Of a DNA stretch of 64,000 bases, positions 5,778 to 13,667 are shown piece by piece (the first letter of the stretch is position 1; every line of letters starts with the position of its first letter). A model generated the notes under the pieces. The model was not told the DNA's origin and made no database searches. It saw nothing but the letters and a program-made list of their open reading frames with translations. Made by a program: the position numbers and the translations under genes. This DNA is from Thermomicrobiales bacterium (GTDB lineage: Bacteria > Chloroflexota > Chloroflexia > Thermomicrobiales > UBA6265): assembly GCA_035708745.1 (NCBI GenBank), contig DASTFJ010000250.1, positions 76,987 through 140,986 on the forward strand, in the 5' to 3' direction.

Positions 5778-6512
5778 TCAAGCACCGAGTGCTTCGAACG
5801 GCAACTGCGTGACCTTGGCCGCGTCTTCCGTACTGACCGAAACGGTGCCCGATTCGGTCATGTAGTCGATGACCGCGGCGTCTTCCGCCTGGCCGGTCAA
5901 CGTTTCCGAGAAGCGCACCTTGCTGTGAGCATTGCCTTCGGCCTCGATCTCGATCGTCTTGCTATCGAGCTGCAGTGCGTCGAGGGTGGCATTGTCCTCG
6001 GTTTGGACCTGCTGCGATTCCGCGCTGCCCGCGATCGACACGCTCGCGTTCCCTTCGACCTGGGACTCCAGGCGCTGGACCGCAAGCTTCGTGACTTGCA
6101 AACTCGTATTGTCTTCTACCGAGATCTCGAGCGAATCGACGGTCAGTCCATCGACTTCAGCGGTAACGGCTCCCTCGAGCTCGATTTGCGAGAGCGACGG
6201 AACGGTGATGTGATAGACCAGATCGGCGCCGGACGATTGGTTGTCATCGTCGTTCGGCTCGATCTCCAACGTGTTGAACCACACCTGCACCTGCAGATTC
6301 GAGATTTGGTCCTGCGGACCAGACACCGTCACCGCCGCCGGCGACCCGATGGTGATGATCGCATGCCCGGCTCCCTCGATTTGCAGCTGAGAGAAATCAC
6401 TCACCTCGAACGGCGTGCCATCGGCCTGCGCCGACGCCGACCCATACCCCACGCCCGTCATCAATACGGCCGCGGCCGCCAATGCGCCAATTCTTGACCA
6501 CGACGATTGCAT
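5778..6512 (-). CDS. Secreted repeat protein, DUF2807-like (putative adhesin head/GIN-type beta-helix)
   Basis: ATG at 6512 (MQSSWSRIGALAAAAVL, signal-peptide-like) is preceded by AGGAGG. The sequence has repetitive G/N/S-rich beta-strand periodicity. Confidence 0.7.
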   Translation of the reverse strand: MQSSWSRIGALAAAAVLMTGVGYGSASAQADGTPFEVSDFSQLQIEGAGHAIITIGSPAAVTVSGPQDQISNLQVQVWFNTLEIEPNDDDNQSSGADLVYHITVPSLSQIELEGAVTAEVDGLTVDSLEISVEDNTSLQVTKLAVQRLESQVEGNASVSIAGSAESQQVQTEDNATLDALQLDSKTIEIEAEGNAHSKVRFSETLTGQAEDAAVIDYMTESGTVSVSTEDAAKVTQLPFEALGA

Positions 6513-6864
6513 TTCGCTTCCTCCTGGCGCCGGCTGGCGCTGATTCGTTCCAGCTTGCCTCTCATTTTGTTTGTGCCCGTCCAGGCGTTCACGCATTGTA
6601 ATGAGGGGCGTTCACCACCAGCAGCCCAAAACTCTGGTTCCCCGCACAATATCGGATCGGATCGCTCTTCGTCTCTCCTGCAAATGGAGGGTATTTCGTC
6701 CGAGGCGGTCACTTCAGGCGTCAGCAATAGCTGAGGAGGCCATTTGACGCCGCGCGCTGCGTACGTACGCTTTGCGGACAATTTTTGGGAACGCCCAGAA
6801 TTACATAGAATTTTCGTCCACTGGGTGTATGTACATTGACTCGGAGTCATGCTATTCTGCCTCT

Positions 6865-7317
6865 GCATTGGTTTTGCCTAGCCGGTGTGCTGAAGCAGTA
6901 AAGCTCAGTCGCCTCGGTCACAACAGGGAACACGCGGGGCGTGAAGTTCATCCCCCGAGTGATGTGACCGGTACCCAGCGAGACATCCGACGCTACGTAA
7001 GGTATCGTGCGACGGATGGAGAGCTTCGACAGCTCCCGCAGTCGTTCTCGGACGACGGCACTTCCGCAAGGAAGCCCCATTCCTTACGAATGGCGGGGAG
7101 AACTGGATTACGTTCCAGCAACGGCAGCAAAAGTGGCGGTCGAGCGTACGGCGCAACCTTCACGGGCAACGGCGCACGAATCGATTGAAGCCAATCGAAG
7201 CAAAGCGGAACGCAAGTGACGCAATGTGGAGAACGGTGAAATTCCAATCAAATGGACCATGCTGCTGATAGGCTGGTACGTCCCCAAAGGCTTCGGCCAG
7301 AGGGGGCGTACTTTTTT
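6865..7317 (+). ncRNA. Candidate large structured non-coding RNA, family unknown; 5' end uncertain
   Basis: No credible ORF. There is an array of tight hairpins, including GNRA (GCAA) and UUCG loops that read correctly only on the plus strand. The unit ends at a strong terminator. A possible promoter is TGTACA-N17-TATTCT at 6830-6858. Confidence 0.4.
7276..7317 (+). terminator. Rho-independent terminator
   Basis: 10-bp stem GUACGUCCCC / GGGGGCGUAC (one G-U pair) with an inner GGC-UUCG-GCC cap, followed by UUUUUU (7312-7317). Confidence 0.75.
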
Positions 7318-7364
7318 CCCCAGGACACCGTTTTCCATGACCCATTGGCACAGTCCAGCCCTAG

Positions 7365-7956
7365 ATGGCGTACGGGTTCGCCCGACCGCGCGTCCTGCTC
7401 ATCGACCGGCGCGGCTGCGCCCTCCTCTTCTGCGCGGCCGGTTCCGATGGGCAGCCGTTCTGGTTCACTCCCGGAGGCGGGCCCAAACCAGATGAGACAC
7501 CGGAAGCTGCAGTTCTCCGGGAGCTCGAAGAAGAAACCGGACTCCGCCACGCCGGAGCTCGAACGAGAAATCTGGTGGCGCACGCTGCATATCCCATTCG
7601 ATGGAGAAGTGCGCGAGATCCACCAGCGATGGTTTCTCGTTCGTACCGATCGCTTTGTGCTCTGCACCTCCGTTTTCGATCAATTGGAGCTCGACACTAT
7701 GATCGAGCACCGCTGGTGGACTGCCAGCGAGCTTCGAGCTACCTCCGACCGAATCGTTCCGGCAGATCTCGGCGCCAGGTTGGCCGATCTGCTGCGCGGT
7801 GGTTCACCCGCGATTCCCGTGGATATCTCGACCGGTCACGTTCGATTGCGGTGTCCTGAATTTCACTGGGTCGAGCTGCATGCTAGGCTGGCGCTTGGGT
7901 GGCCGTGGGCACTCGCCGAACGCCTTCCGATTCAATTGCCATCCTTCAGCATTTAG
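7365..7956 (+). pseudogene. Nudix hydrolase with an apparent +1 frameshift near 7551-7553
   Basis: The Nudix box GGGPKPDETPEAAVLRELEEETGL is in the frame starting at 7365. The conserved C-terminal part (ELEREIWWRTLHIPFDG...HRWWTASEL) continues in the frame that ends at 7956. Confidence 0.7.
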
Positions 7957-7963
7957 AGGAACC

Positions 7964-8716
7964 GTGAATCCCTCGACACGACCCAACGGTCAAGAGGCAG
8001 CCACGCCAATGCACGTCACAGGACACGACCTCGGCGAAATCCGTCTCTTCGCCCACCTACCGGTCACGACGCTCCAGGCGATTGCCGAGCGAGGCCGCAT
8101 CGAGCGCGTTCATCGCGGAGACTTCCTCTTCTTCGAAGGAGATCCGGCCACCAGCGCCCATTTTCTGCTCGACGGCCGAGTGAAAATCGTCCACGAAACG
8201 GAAGACGGACAAGAAGTCATTCTTCGCCTGGTCCAGACCGGGGATATTTTCGGTGGCGCCGGCGGTTGGGGCGATCGTGTCTATCCCGCGACGGCCATCG
8301 CGTTGGACGATGCCCTCATTTTCATCGTTCCGGTCTCAGCATTCACCTTGCTCCTCACCCGCTATCCCGAATTTGCAATGGCGATGATCCAGGAAATGGG
8401 AACGCGCCTGCGCGAAGCCGAGGCTCGCATTCGCGAATTGCAAGCCGAACGCGTCGAACGCCGCATCGCTCGCACCCTGCTGCGATTGGCCGGCAAAACC
8501 GGAACGAAAACCAACGAGGGCATCCAGATCGAACTTCCGCAGTCCCGCCAGCATTTGGCGGACCTTTCTGGCGCCACGCTTAGCACAGTCAGCCGGGTCC
8601 TGAGCGAGTGGGACCGCCAGGGGCTGATTGTCGCTGGCCGTGAGCGCCTGACCATCGCAAAACCTCATCAACTCGTCATGATCGCGGAAGACGCGACCGC
8701 ATCCGACCAGGATTGA
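7964..8716 (+). CDS. Crp/Fnr family transcriptional regulator
   Basis: cNMP-binding-like N-terminal domain and a C-terminal HTH (QHLADLSGATLSTVSRVLSEW). GTG at 7964 follows AGAGGA. An alternative ATG lies at 8009. Confidence 0.85.
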   Translation: MNPSTRPNGQEAATPMHVTGHDLGEIRLFAHLPVTTLQAIAERGRIERVHRGDFLFFEGDPATSAHFLLDGRVKIVHETEDGQEVILRLVQTGDIFGGAGGWGDRVYPATAIALDDALIFIVPVSAFTLLLTRYPEFAMAMIQEMGTRLREAEARIRELQAERVERRIARTLLRLAGKTGTKTNEGIQIELPQSRQHLADLSGATLSTVSRVLSEWDRQGLIVAGRERLTIAKPHQLVMIAEDATASDQD

Positions 8717-8733
8717 CTTTCCATTTCGCTTCT

Positions 8734-8747
8734 TTGCGCTAGCGCAA
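8734..8747. promoter_or_regulatory. Perfect 14-bp palindrome TTGCGCTAGCGCAA (Crp/Fnr-type box, TTGCG-N4-CGCAA)
   Basis: Seen directly. It lies 18 bp after the regulator stop and about 60 bp upstream of the next gene start. Confidence 0.6.
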
Positions 8748-8807
8748 CGACAACTCCTCACCGAAGTGAGAGCCTGAGACTGAAATGAGAGGTCGCAGGA
8801 GTCGCTG

Positions 8808-9038
8808 GTGCCCAAACACGCGGAAACAATCACGAGCGAAACCGTAATCGATTGGGTAATGACCACCTACCCGAGCACGGTTTCCGTGTTTCTCCACTGG
8901 CGCATGCAGTGCGTCGGTTGCCCAATCGCAAGGTTCGAATCGATTGCAGACGCCTGTCTGATGCACCAGCGACCGGTTGGGCCATTCCTCACCGAGCTCC
9001 GCATGGCAGCAGCTGAAGTCATCCCGGAACAGTTATGA
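8808..9038 (+). CDS. DUF1858-type redox-disulfide domain protein (hybrid-cluster-protein-associated type)
   Basis: 76 aa with CVGC (CxxC) in the MQCVGCPIA context. GTG start at 8808 is preceded by AGGAG. Confidence 0.7.
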   Translation: MPKHAETITSETVIDWVMTTYPSTVSVFLHWRMQCVGCPIARFESIADACLMHQRPVGPFLTELRMAAAEVIPEQL

Positions 9039-9054
9039 CGAGCGCAAGGGAACT

Positions 9055-9366
9055 ATGGAAACAATGACGGAAACCGAAGCCTCCGTATGGGACGTGCTTC
9101 ACAGTGTCATCGACCCGGAGGTGGGTATCAACATCGTCGATCTCGGATTGGTGTACGGCGTCGATATCGACGGTGACGATGTCAAGGTCACCATGACCCT
9201 GACCACACCCGGCTGCCCGCTGCACGACACCATTGCCGAGGCAGTCGATACCTCGATTCACTATTTCGTTCCCTATTGCGAAAACGTTAGCATCGACCTC
9301 GTCTGGGAGCCGCGCTGGTCCCCGTCGATGATTACCGAGGCTGGTCTGAAAGCGCTGGGTTGGTAA
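9055..9366 (+). CDS. DUF59/MIP18-family metal-sulfur cluster assembly factor (SufT/PaaD-like)
   Basis: VIDPEVGINIVDLGLVY and TLTTPGCPL motifs. ATG at 9055 follows AAGGGA. Confidence 0.8.
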   Translation: METMTETEASVWDVLHSVIDPEVGINIVDLGLVYGVDIDGDDVKVTMTLTTPGCPLHDTIAEAVDTSIHYFVPYCENVSIDLVWEPRWSPSMITEAGLKALGW

Positions 9367-9368
9367 AG

Positions 9369-10238
9369 ATGGCTTCTCCCTCTTCGGTATCCGCGGCCGC
9401 CCCTATCACCCCCAACTGGAAGATCAGCGAGGTGTTGCAAGTTCACCCAGAGTTGCTCGATGTCCTCATCGAGACGGCGCCAGAATTCAAGAAGTTGCGC
9501 AATCCGATCTTGCGACGCGTCCAGAGCAAACTCGTCACCGTGGGCCAGGCAGCCCAGATCGCCGGTCTCGAACCCGCCTATCTGGTCGACCGTCTCAATG
9601 CGGCGGCTGGTATCCAGGGTCCAGTTGCCGACAAGTCCGAGGATTCGAGCTCTTCGATACCGAAACCCGAACCACCGTGGGTAGATGCAGCAACTATCGC
9701 CCAGTGGATCGATGTTCGACCCTACCAGCAACGTGGCGAAGAACCGTTCAGCGCCATCATGGCCGCCATCCGCGAGGTGCCTCGGGGACAGGTGCTGCTG
9801 TTGCGCAATACCTTCGAACCAACTCCCTTGTACGACATTCTCGGCCAACGCGGATTCGAGCACTGGGCGACGCAACTGGGAGAAAGCGACTGGGAAATTC
9901 GCTTCTTCCACGCCGGATCGGCTCGTACGTCGCAGCAACCCGCGAATGCGCCGGACACTGCGCGAGCTCATGACACTTGGGACGACCCCACTTCCACGCT
10001 GACGATCGATGTAAGCGAGCTCGTTCCGCCTGAACCGATGATTCGGATCCTGACCGCCCTCGAGGAGCTACCGGATGGCGCGAGCCTGCTCGTCCATCAT
10101 GTCCGTCGCCCGATGCATCTTTATCCCCGCCTGGATGAGCTCGGATATCACCATGACACCCGCGAGATCGGGCCTGCACAGGTCGAAATTCTCATTGAAA
10201 AGCCTGCAGCCCCAGTCCCGGTGATAGGTGCGCGATGA
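9369..10238 (+). CDS. Fusion protein: DUF1858-like N-terminal domain plus two DUF2249-like domains
   Basis: The N-terminus resembles the 8808 product but lacks CxxC. Two repeats of about 70 aa match the pattern of the 81-aa product at 11578. Confidence 0.75.
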   Translation: MASPSSVSAAAPITPNWKISEVLQVHPELLDVLIETAPEFKKLRNPILRRVQSKLVTVGQAAQIAGLEPAYLVDRLNAAAGIQGPVADKSEDSSSSIPKPEPPWVDAATIAQWIDVRPYQQRGEEPFSAIMAAIREVPRGQVLLLRNTFEPTPLYDILGQRGFEHWATQLGESDWEIRFFHAGSARTSQQPANAPDTARAHDTWDDPTSTLTIDVSELVPPEPMIRILTALEELPDGASLLVHHVRRPMHLYPRLDELGYHHDTREIGPAQVEILIEKPAAPVPVIGAR

Positions 10239-11581
10239 CAGGCGGTCCCGGGGGGCTGAGCTCGAAGCACGGCCCGGCACTCGATCTTCCCGGTCGTTTC
10301 ATGGCGCTCGCCATGCTGATGCTGGCCGTGGTTGCCGTGGTGTCCCCCTGGGCGTATCGATGGCTCATCGATGGGTTCTATGCCCCACAACTCCTGGCGT
10401 TCGTCCATCTCAACACGCTGGGCGTCATCGCGGCCGTGCTCATGGGAGCCAGTTACCAACTCGTCCCGGTGGTCTTGCAGACCCCGATCGCCTCAGTGCG
10501 GCTTGGCCGCCTGTCGTTTTGGTTCTATCTCGCGGGCATCGTCCTGTTCCTGCCCGGTCTGCTCGAACATTGGCGTCCCGGCATAGCCGCCGGTGCCGCG
10601 TTGGTGTTCTCAGCGTTGCTCGTCTATCTCGGTATCGTGGCGCTGACTCTGCACCGGGCGCCATCGTCCGATGTGGTCTCCTGGCACATCGCCGTTTCAC
10701 TCGTCGGCTTGGCTGGAGGCATTGGGGCCGGTTTCCTGCTCGCGCTGAACAAGGGCGCGGGATTCCTCGAGTCCGCAACATTTCGCGTGCTCGCTGCTCA
10801 CGCAACGCTGATGCTGGCTGGCTGGGTCATCATCATGTTGAACGGAGTGGCCTATCGCCTCGTCGGCATGTTCACCCTGTCCGAAGACCGCCTGTGGCGC
10901 CCGGTCGCGTGGGCTGAGCTCGCATGCTCTGCTTCCGGCGCGTGGCTCCTCGCTACCGGCCTCCTTCTGAATGCCCCCCGGTGGTTGCTCGCGGCTGGAG
11001 CGCTAACGATTGTGGGTGGCCAAGCGCTCTTTGGCGCCCAACTGATCCATCTCTACCGAGTGCGCCGCAGGCGCGGATTCGACATTCATATTCAGTTTGC
11101 GCTGGCGGCAATCACCTGCGGGCTACTCTGTTCCGGCTTGCTGGCCGGAGGTCTCCTTACTCACCGTTCGATCGACTCGCCCGTCTGGATAGCGGTGGGC
11201 TGGCTGGCAATTTCCGGAGTGGCCATTACCGCCATTCAGGGGTTCTTCTACAAGATTGCGACCTTTCTCATTTGGCTACACCGATATGCACCCATCGCGG
11301 GCCGCAGCCGCGTTCCTCGTCTCGAGGATCTGTACGACCGGCGAATCGCGAAGACTGGTTGGGCGTTCTGGGTATCCGGGCTGGCGAGCTCGCTCGTCGC
11401 CATCCTAATTTCGAACCGTTCCCTGGCAACGGCCGCGGGTGTCGTGGCACTTGCAGGGTTGGGTTGTTTTCTCGCAAACGCCGGGCGTATCGCCGCACAC
11501 GCGCGGCCCGGCACTGCGGGGAGTGAATTTTCGGCTCGGATTCGGTTTTCCGGAACGGGCAAGGAAGGACAGGTTTCATGA
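10235..11581 (+). CDS. 12-TM integral membrane protein with intramembrane histidines, family unassigned
   Basis: 448 aa. I count about 12 hydrophobic helices. ATGA overlaps at both ends (10235-10238 and 11578-11581). Confidence 0.75.
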   Translation: MTGGPGGLSSKHGPALDLPGRFMALAMLMLAVVAVVSPWAYRWLIDGFYAPQLLAFVHLNTLGVIAAVLMGASYQLVPVVLQTPIASVRLGRLSFWFYLAGIVLFLPGLLEHWRPGIAAGAALVFSALLVYLGIVALTLHRAPSSDVVSWHIAVSLVGLAGGIGAGFLLALNKGAGFLESATFRVLAAHATLMLAGWVIIMLNGVAYRLVGMFTLSEDRLWRPVAWAELACSASGAWLLATGLLLNAPRWLLAAGALTIVGGQALFGAQLIHLYRVRRRRGFDIHIQFALAAITCGLLCSGLLAGGLLTHRSIDSPVWIAVGWLAISGVAITAIQGFFYKIATFLIWLHRYAPIAGRSRVPRLEDLYDRRIAKTGWAFWVSGLASSLVAILISNRSLATAAGVVALAGLGCFLANAGRIAAHARPGTAGSEFSARIRFSGTGKEGQVS

Positions 11582-11823
11582 CCGACAAGACCGCTGCTAC
11601 CGTCGAGGTCGACGTGCGAAACATGGTGCCACGCGAGCGGCATCCGTTGATTTTCGCCACCATCGATGAGCTCGCCGCCGGCGAAACGATGCTGCTCATC
11701 AATGATCACGATCCCAAGCCACTGTATTATCAACTGATGGCCGAGCGCGCCGGTCAGGTTGGCTGGGAATATATCGAAAACGGCCCCACGGTTTGGCAGG
11801 TTCAAATCACAAAGCTCGGTTGA
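11578..11823 (+). CDS. DUF2249 domain protein
   Basis: 81 aa. The pattern VDVRNMVPRERHPLIFATIDELAAGETMLLINDHDPKPLYYQL is typical of DUF2249. Confidence 0.75.
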   Translation: MTDKTAATVEVDVRNMVPRERHPLIFATIDELAAGETMLLINDHDPKPLYYQLMAERAGQVGWEYIENGPTVWQVQITKLG

Positions 11824-11836
11824 ACTCGTAACGATT

Positions 11837-11869
11837 CGGCATCTGGCGACGTTGTGTCGCCCGATGCCG
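11837..11869 (+). terminator. Strong hairpin after the operon; no U tract
   Basis: CGGCAUC-U-GGCGAC / GUUGU / GUCGCC-C-GAUGCCG gives 13 bp with one mismatch. Confidence 0.45.
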
Positions 11870-11905
11870 CCCGCCAATCCCTAGGCAGGCCGCAACCGCA
11901 CCCAC

Positions 11906-12163
11906 GTGCGCGGACAAGACTTTGTGACGAACGAGCAACGCAAGCGACATGGCGCCGGTGGGAAGTCGGAAGACTCAGCGTCCCGCCCTCAACAGCAACT
12001 CGATCGACCGCCCAAATCGGGTACCGGTCGGGTCGTGCAAGGCAATCCGGAAAAGAAAACATCGTCAGAACGTCCAGATGTTGTCGAGGAAGCATCGGAA
12101 GATTCGTTTCCAGCAAGCGATCCCCCGAACTGGGCAACCGGACAGCAACGAAACCCCGGATGA
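11906..12163 (+). CDS. Small hydrophilic protein with a C-terminal DSFPASDPP motif
   Basis: 85-aa ORF with a GTG start. The SFPASDPP motif recurs in small conserved bacterial proteins (from memory). The start is uncertain. Confidence 0.45.
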   Translation: MRGQDFVTNEQRKRHGAGGKSEDSASRPQQQLDRPPKSGTGRVVQGNPEKKTSSERPDVVEEASEDSFPASDPPNWATGQQRNPG

Positions 12164-12227
12164 CACCAACCGAAGCGAAGAGCCTTGGTTTCCTGGCTCA
12201 TCCCGATGTGCGAAATGAGTTTCACCG

Positions 12228-13379
12228 ATGACAACCCCACTCCCCGACTGGGATCCTCGCGATCCCGCGATTTTGCAGGACCAGCGCGCGGCCTACGATG
12301 CCATGCGCCAGCGCTGCCCGGTCGCCTATAGCGAGTTTCTGGGCTGGTCGCTCTTCAGGCACGACGACATCGAACGCGTCCTGGACGATCCAGCGACATT
12401 TCGAAGCGCATCCCGCCACAGGGCAGTTCCCAATAGCCTGGACCCACCCGAGCACACTCTGTTCCGGCAGGCAATCGAACCGTTCTTCGAAGCCGAAACG
12501 ATGCTGGCATTCGAACCCCGCTGTCGGACCATCGCCGCCGAACTCACCGTCAACTCGATCCGCCGGGGCGAATTGGAATTCGCTCAGGAATTTGCCGAAC
12601 ACTTTGCACTTCGCTCGGCATGCGCGTTTCTTGGCTGGCCCGAGGACGATTGGATCGACCTGCAAGGCTGGACGCATGGCAATCAGGATGCGGCGCTCTC
12701 GCGTGACCGCGCTGCCGGACAAGCTCTCGCCGCGCAATTAGAACGCCACGTCGATACCGCCATTCGCGCGCGCAGAGCCGGCGCCATTCGATCCGACCAC
12801 GATCTCACCACTTGCCTCATGGCAACCCAGGTGGACGGGCAGGCCCTCTCCGACGATGACATAGTGAGCATCCTGCGCAACTGGATCGCCGGACATGGCA
12901 CCGTCGCAGCAGGATTGGGCATTCTGGTCTTCCACCTGGCACAGGATCTCGACCTGCAACACCGACTCCGCGCTGATCCCGCGCTCATTGGACCGGCCGT
13001 GGACGAGATTCTGCGCGTCGATGACCCACTCGTCGCTAATCGCCGCACCACTGCGCACGCGGTCGACATCGGCGAGCGTCACATTCCCGTTGACGCAAAA
13101 CTGACCTTGATGTGGATTGCTGCTAATCGCGACGAAAACGCATTCGCCAGCCCCGATGTCATCGACCTCGATCGCGATCAGCGGCAAAATCTCGTTTTCG
13201 GCGCGGGCATTCACGATTGCGTTGGTGCGCCGCTGGCTCGTCTCGAGTTGCGAGTCGCGTTGGAAGAGCTCCTTGGCCAAACGTCGGCAATCGCGCCGGG
13301 AACGTCGGACGCTCCGGTTCGCGCCGTCTATCCGGGCAACGGCTTCCGGAAGTTGCCGATCAGCTTGGCTGGCGCGTGA
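12228..13379 (+). CDS. Cytochrome P450
   Basis: Heme-binding loop FGAGIHDCVGAPLA (FxxGxHxCxG) and EILRVDDP (ExxR). Confidence 0.9.
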   Translation: MTTPLPDWDPRDPAILQDQRAAYDAMRQRCPVAYSEFLGWSLFRHDDIERVLDDPATFRSASRHRAVPNSLDPPEHTLFRQAIEPFFEAETMLAFEPRCRTIAAELTVNSIRRGELEFAQEFAEHFALRSACAFLGWPEDDWIDLQGWTHGNQDAALSRDRAAGQALAAQLERHVDTAIRARRAGAIRSDHDLTTCLMATQVDGQALSDDDIVSILRNWIAGHGTVAAGLGILVFHLAQDLDLQHRLRADPALIGPAVDEILRVDDPLVANRRTTAHAVDIGERHIPVDAKLTLMWIAANRDENAFASPDVIDLDRDQRQNLVFGAGIHDCVGAPLARLELRVALEELLGQTSAIAPGTSDAPVRAVYPGNGFRKLPISLAGA

Positions 13380-13576
13380 GTATCGACTCCAGTCGCAAAG
13401 TTTCGAACGAATGAGAGAAGGATTCACCTGGCTCAGTTCGAACTGTCCTGGCCGCCTTCGAACCCAACCTGGCCCGGAGCCCGTGGGTAAATACAATCAG
13501 CGAGAAGTCACTGAGTGGCCGGCTGGAGTAGAATGCACCAGGTTGCCGGGAACCGCGGTTTCCCGCCAGCGCATCT

Positions 13577-13649
13577 GCGCCCGTAGCTCAGTGGATAGAG
13601 CGCTTGCCTCCGGAGCAAGAGGTCGCGTGTTCGAGTCACGCCGGGCGTA
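13577..13649 (+). tRNA. tRNA-Arg (anticodon CCG)
   Basis: Hand-folded cloverleaf: acceptor GCGCCCG/CGGGCGU (G1-U72 wobble), D arm GCUC-AGUGGAUA-GAGC, anticodon arm CUUGC-CUCCGGA-GCAAG, T arm GCGUG-UUCGAGU-CACGC. No encoded CCA. Confidence 0.9.
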
Positions 13650-13667
13650 CCCCTAAAGCCCCAGTGT

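Follow-up and report, generated by a model that had tools for sequence, protein, structure and literature searches.

A 64-kb stretch of a contig from a Thermomicrobiales bacterium (hereafter the window, to which positions refer unless a homologous locus is named) contains a gap of 850 base pairs (bp) between a minus-strand gene for a DUF2807 protein and a plus-strand gene for a Nudix hydrolase. Only short, overlapping open reading frames (ORFs) are found in this gap, within which lie positions 6865-7317, the subject of this work (Table 1). An earlier note made from this one sequence had proposed that these positions encode a large structured noncoding RNA (ncRNA) of unknown family, about 450 nucleotides (nt) long, on the plus strand and extending from around 6865 to a terminator. 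Comparison with homologous loci supports this proposal and corrects the details of the secondary structure. Over 6900-7300 the skew of A over T is strongly positive, and folding of the unit 6860-7320 gave z = -3.27 for the plus strand, with 0 of 100 shuffles as good, and z = -2.55 for the minus strand. No second copy of the RNA was found within the window.

Conservation and boundaries of the unit

Homologues were reached through the contigs of DUF2807 protein relatives and through a search of metagenomes for a 20-base pattern invariant in the RNA, which contributed two further loci. Ten homologous loci were found on metagenome contigs, nine of them full length and one cut by the contig end, with nhmmer E-values of 1e-107 to 1e-182. 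These and the window make up the 11 RNA sequences of alignment A3; alignment A1 covers five loci (the window and L011-L014). The hosts are probably soil-dwelling, uncultured Thermomicrobiales (Chloroflexota). The DUF2807 protein homologues form a graded series of 60-89% identity, an exact look-up of the window's own DUF2807 protein showed that it is not on record, and near-identical contigs of the same species (99.5-99.8%) were reached via the downstream DUF59 protein. With the Nudix gene as anchor, a scan of genome contigs returned unrelated Nudix genes only, and a Nudix protein search gave one close relative followed by a drop to 41% identity.

The conservation profile is box-shaped over the RNA, with sharp edges. 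Nucleotide identity to the window is 74-88% over the RNA compared with 67-83% over the adjoining DUF2807 coding sequence, and the spacer between the two cannot be aligned across homologues. At the upstream edge, conservation across loci revealed an extended -10 element in which T6853, A6854 and T6858 (TAnnnT) are invariant and the TG is present in 10 of 11 loci. Five or six variable bases follow, and then the invariant GCATTGGTTTTGCCTAGCCGGTG (beginning GCATTGG) from G6865. A variable gap after an invariant -10 element, succeeded by invariant RNA, is the classic signature of a promoter and its start site, which puts the predicted 5' end at G6865. The -10 hexamer TATTCT (6853-6858) and the start at 6865 suggested from the single sequence match this conservation pattern to the base. 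A simple sigma-70 scan flagged no promoter-like site in 6000-8000; it missed the element at 6850-6858 because the -35 region is poor. The invariant block just 5' of the -10 element contains two palindromes, ATGTACAT (6829-6836) and TGACT-nnn-AGTCA (6837-6849; TGACTnnnAGTCA). Within the block, none of the 11 loci departs from GTGTATGTACATTGACT or AGTCA, and the intervening 3-nt spacer is variable. To judge from this pattern, the two invariant palindromes probably bind a regulator.

At the downstream edge, the terminator proposed in the earlier note, with its GGC-UUCG-GCC cap and U tract, proved real. Its stem (7275-7284/7302-7312) carries compensatory pairs at A3 columns 426/454 (G-C to A-U), 430/450 (C-G to A-U) and 437/444, and the T tract at 7312-7317 has a counterpart in all loci, interrupted in the distant clade. 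A pattern scan flagged the terminator in part. At the level of sequence, the conserved region has the marks of an independent transcription unit, being bounded by a conserved promoter and an intrinsic terminator.

Secondary structure and candidate tertiary contacts

An RNAalifold consensus computed on A3 comprises 123 pairs in 20 helices. Standard pairs occupy 98.3% of 1322 cells, compared with 34-39% in controls with slid partners, and 22 of the 123 pairs change on both sides yet stay paired (63 cells), compared with 1-7 pairs in the slid controls. None of 500 shuffles reached the observed pairing, the number of double-change pairs, the number of double-change cells or the covariation score, which are four of the five measures used. 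Judged from these alignments, the secondary structure is kept by compensatory substitutions, the mark of a structured ncRNA. The strand is fixed as plus by the imbalance of 151 G·U to 9 A·C cells among consensus pairs, in agreement with the earlier note, and pairing falls from 98.3% to 87.6% when the alignment is read as the minus strand. Among unpaired bases, 38% are A.

Compensatory support is found for helices P5, P6, P7, P9, P10, P11, P12, P13, P14, P16, P17, P19 and P20. In P5, P6, P7, P9, P10, P11 and P12 this amounts to one to three compensatory pairs each, and in P13, P14 and P17 to one, one and two, respectively. In P6, pair 72/92 occurs as A-U, G-C or C-G, with five double changes and none broken. 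The loop of P10 is C(UUCG)G in most homologues, that of P12 is CUUAC, CCUAC or CCUAU, and that of P11 is always of the GNRA type (GCAA, GAAA, GAGA or GUAA) despite the sequence change. Assignment of P15, P16 and P18 in domain II is tentative, and A3 columns 281-300 appear, on our own reading of the sequences, to be a clade-specific variable hairpin. Extensive unpaired stretches are also invariant, including ACAACAGGGAAC, ACCCAGCGA, AACCUUCAC and CAUAGGCUGGUAC.

The hairpins listed in the earlier note are all physically present to within 1 nt, with the 3' arm of the outer stem at 6963-6970 and not at 6964-6971. The array at 7018-7118 (101 nt) does fold singly as five hairpins (z = -3.16, 1 of 200 shuffles as good). 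In the homologues, compensatory changes back the hairpins at 7041-7056 and 7061-7074, the second of which closes the GNRA loop of P11, as well as the CAUUC/GAAUG core of the hairpin placed at 7075-7096 and the outer stem at 6915-6922. Three other proposed hairpins did not survive the comparison. In that at 7018-7037, a C-to-G change goes uncompensated in 5 of 11 sequences, and the arms pair instead at long range (6902-6906/7021-7025 and 7030-7037/7096-7105); in that at 7103-7118, whose 3' part belongs to P2, a G-to-A change goes uncompensated in 4 of 11; and that at 7182-7197 is not kept in the distant clade. The inner CACGC/GGG/GCGUG hairpin is kept in part (7 of 11 at the key pair), and the nested helix 6931-6944/6948-6961 is better supported.

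Two candidate contacts, PK1 and PK2, came from a scan for further helices; both lie outside the nested structure and pair perfectly in every sequence. The 3' half of PK1 (7158-7164) lies inside the near-invariant AACCUUCACGGGC, and its pairing is kept in 77 of 77 cells. A double change turns C-G into U-A at one pair, and three single changes are compatible with wobble pairing; PK1 is in competition with P15 and with the apical 4 bp of P6. PK2 is likewise paired in 77 of 77 cells, and an A-U to G-C swap at 136/221 splits four sequences from the other seven. Together, the two contacts account for 154 of 154 paired cells, two compensatory pairs and five wobble-compatible single changes. From these covariation data, domains I and II are probably tied together by a loop-to-strand pseudoknot (PK1) and a loop-loop kissing contact (PK2), although PK2 could equally well be intermolecular as intramolecular. 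Two further candidates, an 11-nt GNRA-receptor reading of CCUAG/UAUGG and a helix GCCUA/UAGGC closing the 5' and 3' ends, were dropped, as the bases concerned are invariant and covariation is uninformative.

Table 1. Positions of the RNA, its predicted structural elements and the adjoining genes in the window
Feature	Position	Strand	Remarks
ncRNA	6865-7317	+	About 453 nt; 5' end at G6865 predicted; 3' end at the terminator T tract
Invariant upstream block	6825-6849	+	Candidate operator or promoter-recognition element, just 5' of the -10 element
Extended -10 element, TG-n-TATTCT	6850-6858	+	Recognised by conservation across loci
Domain I	6889-7119	+	Closed by long-range P2; holds P3-P7 and the P10-P12 cluster
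P2	6889-6901/7108-7119	+	11 pairs, all invariant
P5	6914-6922/6963-6971	+	Pairs 53/104 and 54/103 each double-changed in 3 sequences
P6	6931-6944/6948-6961	+	Pair 68/96 G-C to A-U in 3 sequences
P7	6984-7018	+	Compensatory pairs 121/153, 123/151 and 132/143
P10-P12, adjoining hairpins	7038-7092	+	2, 2 and 1 compensatory pairs
Domain II	7124-7265	+	Closed by P13/P14 (7124-7128/7261-7265, 7133-7136/7257-7260)
P17	7200-7211/7216-7227	+	In domain II; GCAA loop
PK1, candidate pseudoknot	6940-6946/7158-7164	+	CGUGAAG (P6 apical loop) with CUUCACG (domain II), 7 bp
PK2, candidate kissing interaction	6996-7002/7082-7088	+	CGUAAGG (P7 loop) with CCUUACG (P12 loop), 7 bp
Intrinsic terminator	7275-7317	+	10-bp outer stem, internal loop, GGC-UUCG-GCC, U6
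DUF2807 gene with signal peptide	5778-6512	-	Pfam PF10988, E 5.9e-25; sole constant neighbour
Nudix hydrolase gene	7339-7956	+	Starts about 22 nt after the T tract; context only

Genomic neighbourhood

Analysis of the flanks revealed the DUF2807 gene upstream of the RNA, in divergent orientation, in every locus with enough flank (10 of 10). Its distance to the RNA start is about 310-410 nt (about 1200 nt in L013), and beyond it extends a conserved block encoding two ABC ATPases, an M50-like peptidase, an HD protein, ScpA and ScpB. The clade that carries the RNA corresponds roughly to a ScpB identity of at least 80%, ScpB being encoded 6 kb away in this same block. The window's ScpB shares 85% identity with proteins labelled as coming from Thermomicrobiales metagenome-assembled genomes. 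Two DUF2807 homologues of 64% identity, in L018 and L019, have no RNA copy, which indicates that the DUF2807 family is not strictly tied to the RNA. In both loci the DUF2807 homologue (8001-8735) stands in a different neighbourhood, with an FAD/BBE oxidase and DinB. Features of its own also mark the spacer that separates the DUF2807 gene from the RNA promoter. A second upstream block, GTACGTACGCTTTGCGGACAATTTTT (6761-6787), is shared by the window, L011, L012 and L021, is retained in part in L014 and is not conserved in the distant clade; it may be part of the divergent DUF2807 promoter or of a site for a regulator. The pattern scan also flagged a terminator-like hairpin, CTCTCCTGCAAATGGAGGG, followed by TATTTCG at 6673-6691 (+). 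In L013, about 800 nt extra separate the RNA promoter from the DUF2807 gene compared with the other loci (761-1913), partly under a call for a 207-amino-acid gene of no family.

Downstream, a start of the form ATGAC..TGGCAC is conserved about 20-30 nt past the T tract in the five A1 loci, and tblastn revealed a Nudix relative after the RNA in the window, L011 (27% identity), L012, L014 and L021. Three other loci have a different gene downstream: in L017 a zinc alcohol dehydrogenase at a distance of about 430 nt, in L016 an unrelated gene of 312 amino acids at about 200 nt, and in L023 a LuxR-type regulator at about 850 nt. The operon that follows the RNA in the window (about 7339-13500, plus strand), as in L001 and L011 and L012, encodes Nudix, a Crp/Fnr-type regulator, DUF1858, DUF59 (FeS_assembly_P), DUF1858/DUF2249, a 448-amino-acid protein with a faint COX1 signal, DUF2249 and a P450, which suggests a stress cluster for nitric oxide or iron-sulfur repair. 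This operon is probably expressed by read-through of the terminator, because there is no room for a promoter. Relative to the same-species contigs L001 and L010, the window has one C too many at 7552, which shifts the frame of its Nudix gene; in those two contigs the gene is intact, coding for a 196-amino-acid protein in L001 (325-915), and the extra C reflects an assembly error or else a pseudogene particular to the strain. Further downstream, a tRNA-Arg(CCG) at 13576-13652 (+) is the only gathering-level Rfam or ARAGORN match in the window.

The genes beside the RNA in ten loci include no reverse transcriptase, transposase, TnpB/IscB, insertion sequence (IS) or other nuclease gene. A guide RNA of a mobile element or defence system (TnpB/IscB omega RNA, IS110 bridge RNA, or the ncRNA of a retron or DRT) was considered and rejected, there being no cognate gene and a single copy. 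A pattern scan of viral collections and BLAST searches of plasmid and phage collections gave no match to the RNA. Being single-copy in the window, syntenic and absent from these collections, the RNA is not mobile.

Public gene calls without a Pfam match overlie the RNA in L011 (3185-4039, +), L016 (7014-7610, +), L023 (5060-5542, +) and L013 (554-1177, -). Only the L013 call shares the strand of the RNA, the other three being antisense. The calls are probably spurious, because the antisense frame lacks codon-position bias.

Interpretation and possible role of the RNA

With good confidence, we interpret 6865-7317 (+) as a stand-alone structured ncRNA gene of an uncatalogued family, inherited vertically in one Thermomicrobiales clade, with its own promoter, a two-domain fold and a function in trans. 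Transcription would start near G6865 from the extended -10 promoter, and the transcript would fold into domain I (6889-7119) and domain II (7124-7265), bridged by PK1 and PK2. The compactly folded RNA would then act in trans, most plausibly as a protein-binding scaffold, a component of a ribonucleoprotein (RNP) or a self-assembling RNA, and would not be a cis regulator of the gene downstream. The invariant unpaired stretches, the GNRA loop and the candidate long-range contacts make it resemble RNAs that depend on their shape (RNP cores, ribozymes and self-assembling RNAs), and not base-pairing small RNAs (sRNAs).

Several points weigh against this interpretation. The alignment holds only 11 sequences from one clade, and several of the compensatory changes are shared within subclades, so that each may be a single event. 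P2, the largest helix, is invariant, as are P4 and P8, and P1, the 5' hairpin, varies on one side only; these four helices are predictions only, and the fold inside domain II (approximately 7137-7199 and 7228-7256) could be resolved only in part. Sequence conservation is all that the promoter, the start site and termination are read from. The scaffold or RNP role in trans is suggested by analogy with OLE, ROOL, GOLLD and raiA, with no specific partner or activity indicated, and the constant neighbour, a secreted or membrane-anchored protein, is an unlikely partner for the RNA. The Nudix start, about 22 nt past the T tract in the window's subclade, is placed as it would be behind a long cis-acting leader.

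A leader of this kind (a riboswitch, an attenuator or a protein-binding leader) would control read-through of 7275-7317 into the Nudix - Crp/Fnr - DUF1858 - DUF59 - DUF2249 - P450 operon. There is no room for a separate Nudix promoter, the promoter scan is blank over 6000-8000, and both the start-codon arrangement in the five A1 loci and the Nudix relatives in the window, L011, L012, L014 and L021 agree with it. Set against this, L016, L017 and L023 have an equally conserved RNA with unrelated genes 200-850 nt downstream; such inconsistency downstream speaks against a leader dedicated to cis regulation and in favour of a separate RNA gene. No conserved pairing that competes with the 5' arm of the terminator was seen on inspection of A3 or in the helix scan, neither being a search dedicated to such pairing. 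The length of 453 nt in two closed domains is far beyond the known size of an aptamer plus its expression platform, and no Rfam riboswitch, T-box or leader model matches; we regard a leader as unlikely. One antiterminator candidate, GUACC/GGUAC, was tried and is not conserved. A protein-coding or decayed gene, in the form of a plus-strand ORF of 138 amino acids (6772-7188) or an antisense ORF of about 200, deserves almost no credence. It is true that no sequence has a stop in one plus-strand frame across alignment columns 1-140, that the antisense frame runs open throughout in L016, L017, L022 and L023, and that proteins have been called publicly over the homologous region, antisense in L011, L016 and L023. 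However, variable sites fall 14/15/14 by codon position in that plus-strand frame, with no third-position excess, and 34/33/38 in the antisense ORF, which is broken by stops and 1-nt indels in the window's subclade. Over the whole RNA, variable columns divide 60/67/69 by phase, without codon periodicity. Internal indels are of 1, 2 or 4 nt, mostly 1, several 1-nt indels separate the subclades, and every frame has stops in some homologues. The substitutions are accounted for by base-pair compensation instead. Pfam gave no match for the ORFs inside the region, none is on record for the called ORFs in the homologues, and there is no sign of a decayed protein gene, all in line with the earlier note's view that the region has no credible ORF.

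We consider it very unlikely that the RNA is a divergent form of a known one (RNase P, tmRNA, SRP, a 6S/Ms1-type RNA, OLE, ROOL, GOLLD, HEARO, raiA or a group I/II intron fragment). Members of some families, notably 6S, do escape covariance models because their sequences vary so much, and the size range overlaps those of RNase P and tmRNA. Rfam 15 comprises 4227 models, including RNase P, tmRNA, SRP, 6S, OLE, ROOL, GOLLD, HEARO, raiA, riboswitches, T-box and group I/II introns, and returned nothing for the RNA in 6500-7450 at the gathering threshold or at E<10; the lone permissive match there was a chance sR49, outside the unit and on the other strand. The same library at E<5 gave nothing at the position of the RNA in seven homologous loci up to 25% divergent, and ARAGORN found no tmRNA in the window. 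By eye, the universal motifs of RNase P, a tag-peptide ORF with a tRNA-like end, the domain IV motif of SRP and the single long 6S hairpin with its central bubble are all absent, the consensus being a two-domain, multi-branched fold. The RNA is not inside a host gene and hence is not an intron, and no reverse transcriptase, TnpB/IscB or IS gene adjoins it. A conserved element acting as DNA and not as transcript (regulatory DNA, a site near scpAB for replication or segregation, or a mobile remnant) is highly improbable. The unit does sit at the edge of the conserved block from DUF2807 through the ABC ATPases, M50 and HD to ScpA and ScpB, with invariant palindromes at its own upstream edge, but compensatory changes over about 450 nt and the excess of G·U over A·C (151 to 9) speak for selection on a single-stranded plus-strand RNA, and the conserved, compensated terminator marks the end of a transcript. 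Nor does a single, syntenic copy absent from phage, plasmid and viral collections suit a mobile remnant.

Returning to the independent, trans-acting RNA, the nearest comparisons are with OLE, ROOL, GOLLD and raiA, orphan large structured bacterial ncRNAs (PMC12286853, PMC12054373 and PMC9723947). Like them, the RNA is a stand-alone gene of several hundred nucleotides with covariation-supported helices, conserved unpaired A-rich stretches, GNRA and UUCG loops that are likewise conserved, probable contacts of the long-range or kissing type, and a narrow phylogenetic range. In contrast to them, it does not match their Rfam models and occurs in Thermomicrobiales, not in Bacillota, Lactobacillales or phage; it is also shorter than OLE, ROOL and GOLLD, lacks adjoining partner genes of the oapA/B/C kind and has no association with phage or prophage. 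With intrinsically terminated sRNA genes it shares a predicted promoter and 5' end of its own, a GC-rich stem with a U tract and a position between protein genes. It differs from typical base-pairing sRNAs in being two to four times longer, almost wholly engaged in conserved helices and without an evident single-stranded seed region. In the window's subclade it resembles riboswitch or attenuator leaders in having a terminator directly 5' of a coding gene on the same strand; unlike them, it is much larger, has a variable downstream gene, showed no antiterminator on inspection of A3 or in the helix scan, and matches no aptamer model.

The family appears to be new, and the kind of object, an orphan large structured bacterial ncRNA, has precedents. 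The large, densely structured bacterial ncRNAs that have been characterised turned out to be ribozymes, RNP cores or, lately, unexpected RNA-only assemblies (PMC12286853). A stronger proposal, which we consider likely, is that this RNA defines a truly new class of large ncRNA whose tertiary fold is complex, two domains being bridged by a pseudoknot and a kissing loop, and which has a biochemical activity of its own as an RNP core, RNA-only assembly or ribozyme, and that it is restricted to an uncultured soil clade of Thermomicrobiales and was overlooked owing to spurious antisense ORF calls. Its mode of action may be conventional after all.

Bacterial ncRNAs longer than approximately 400 nt with dense, covariation-supported structure are rare. 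To our knowledge, very few lineage-specific RNAs have been described in Chloroflexota, and our literature searches gave no description of a comparable large ncRNA in Thermomicrobiales or in Chloroflexota. The distribution so far is narrow, comprising 11 sequences from one clade of uncultured hosts. Recognition of the RNA family would correct hypothetical-protein calls over at least three homologous loci, and a new class in Chloroflexota would be a further, independent case of a large structured ncRNA, for which an alignment and a structure model are in hand.

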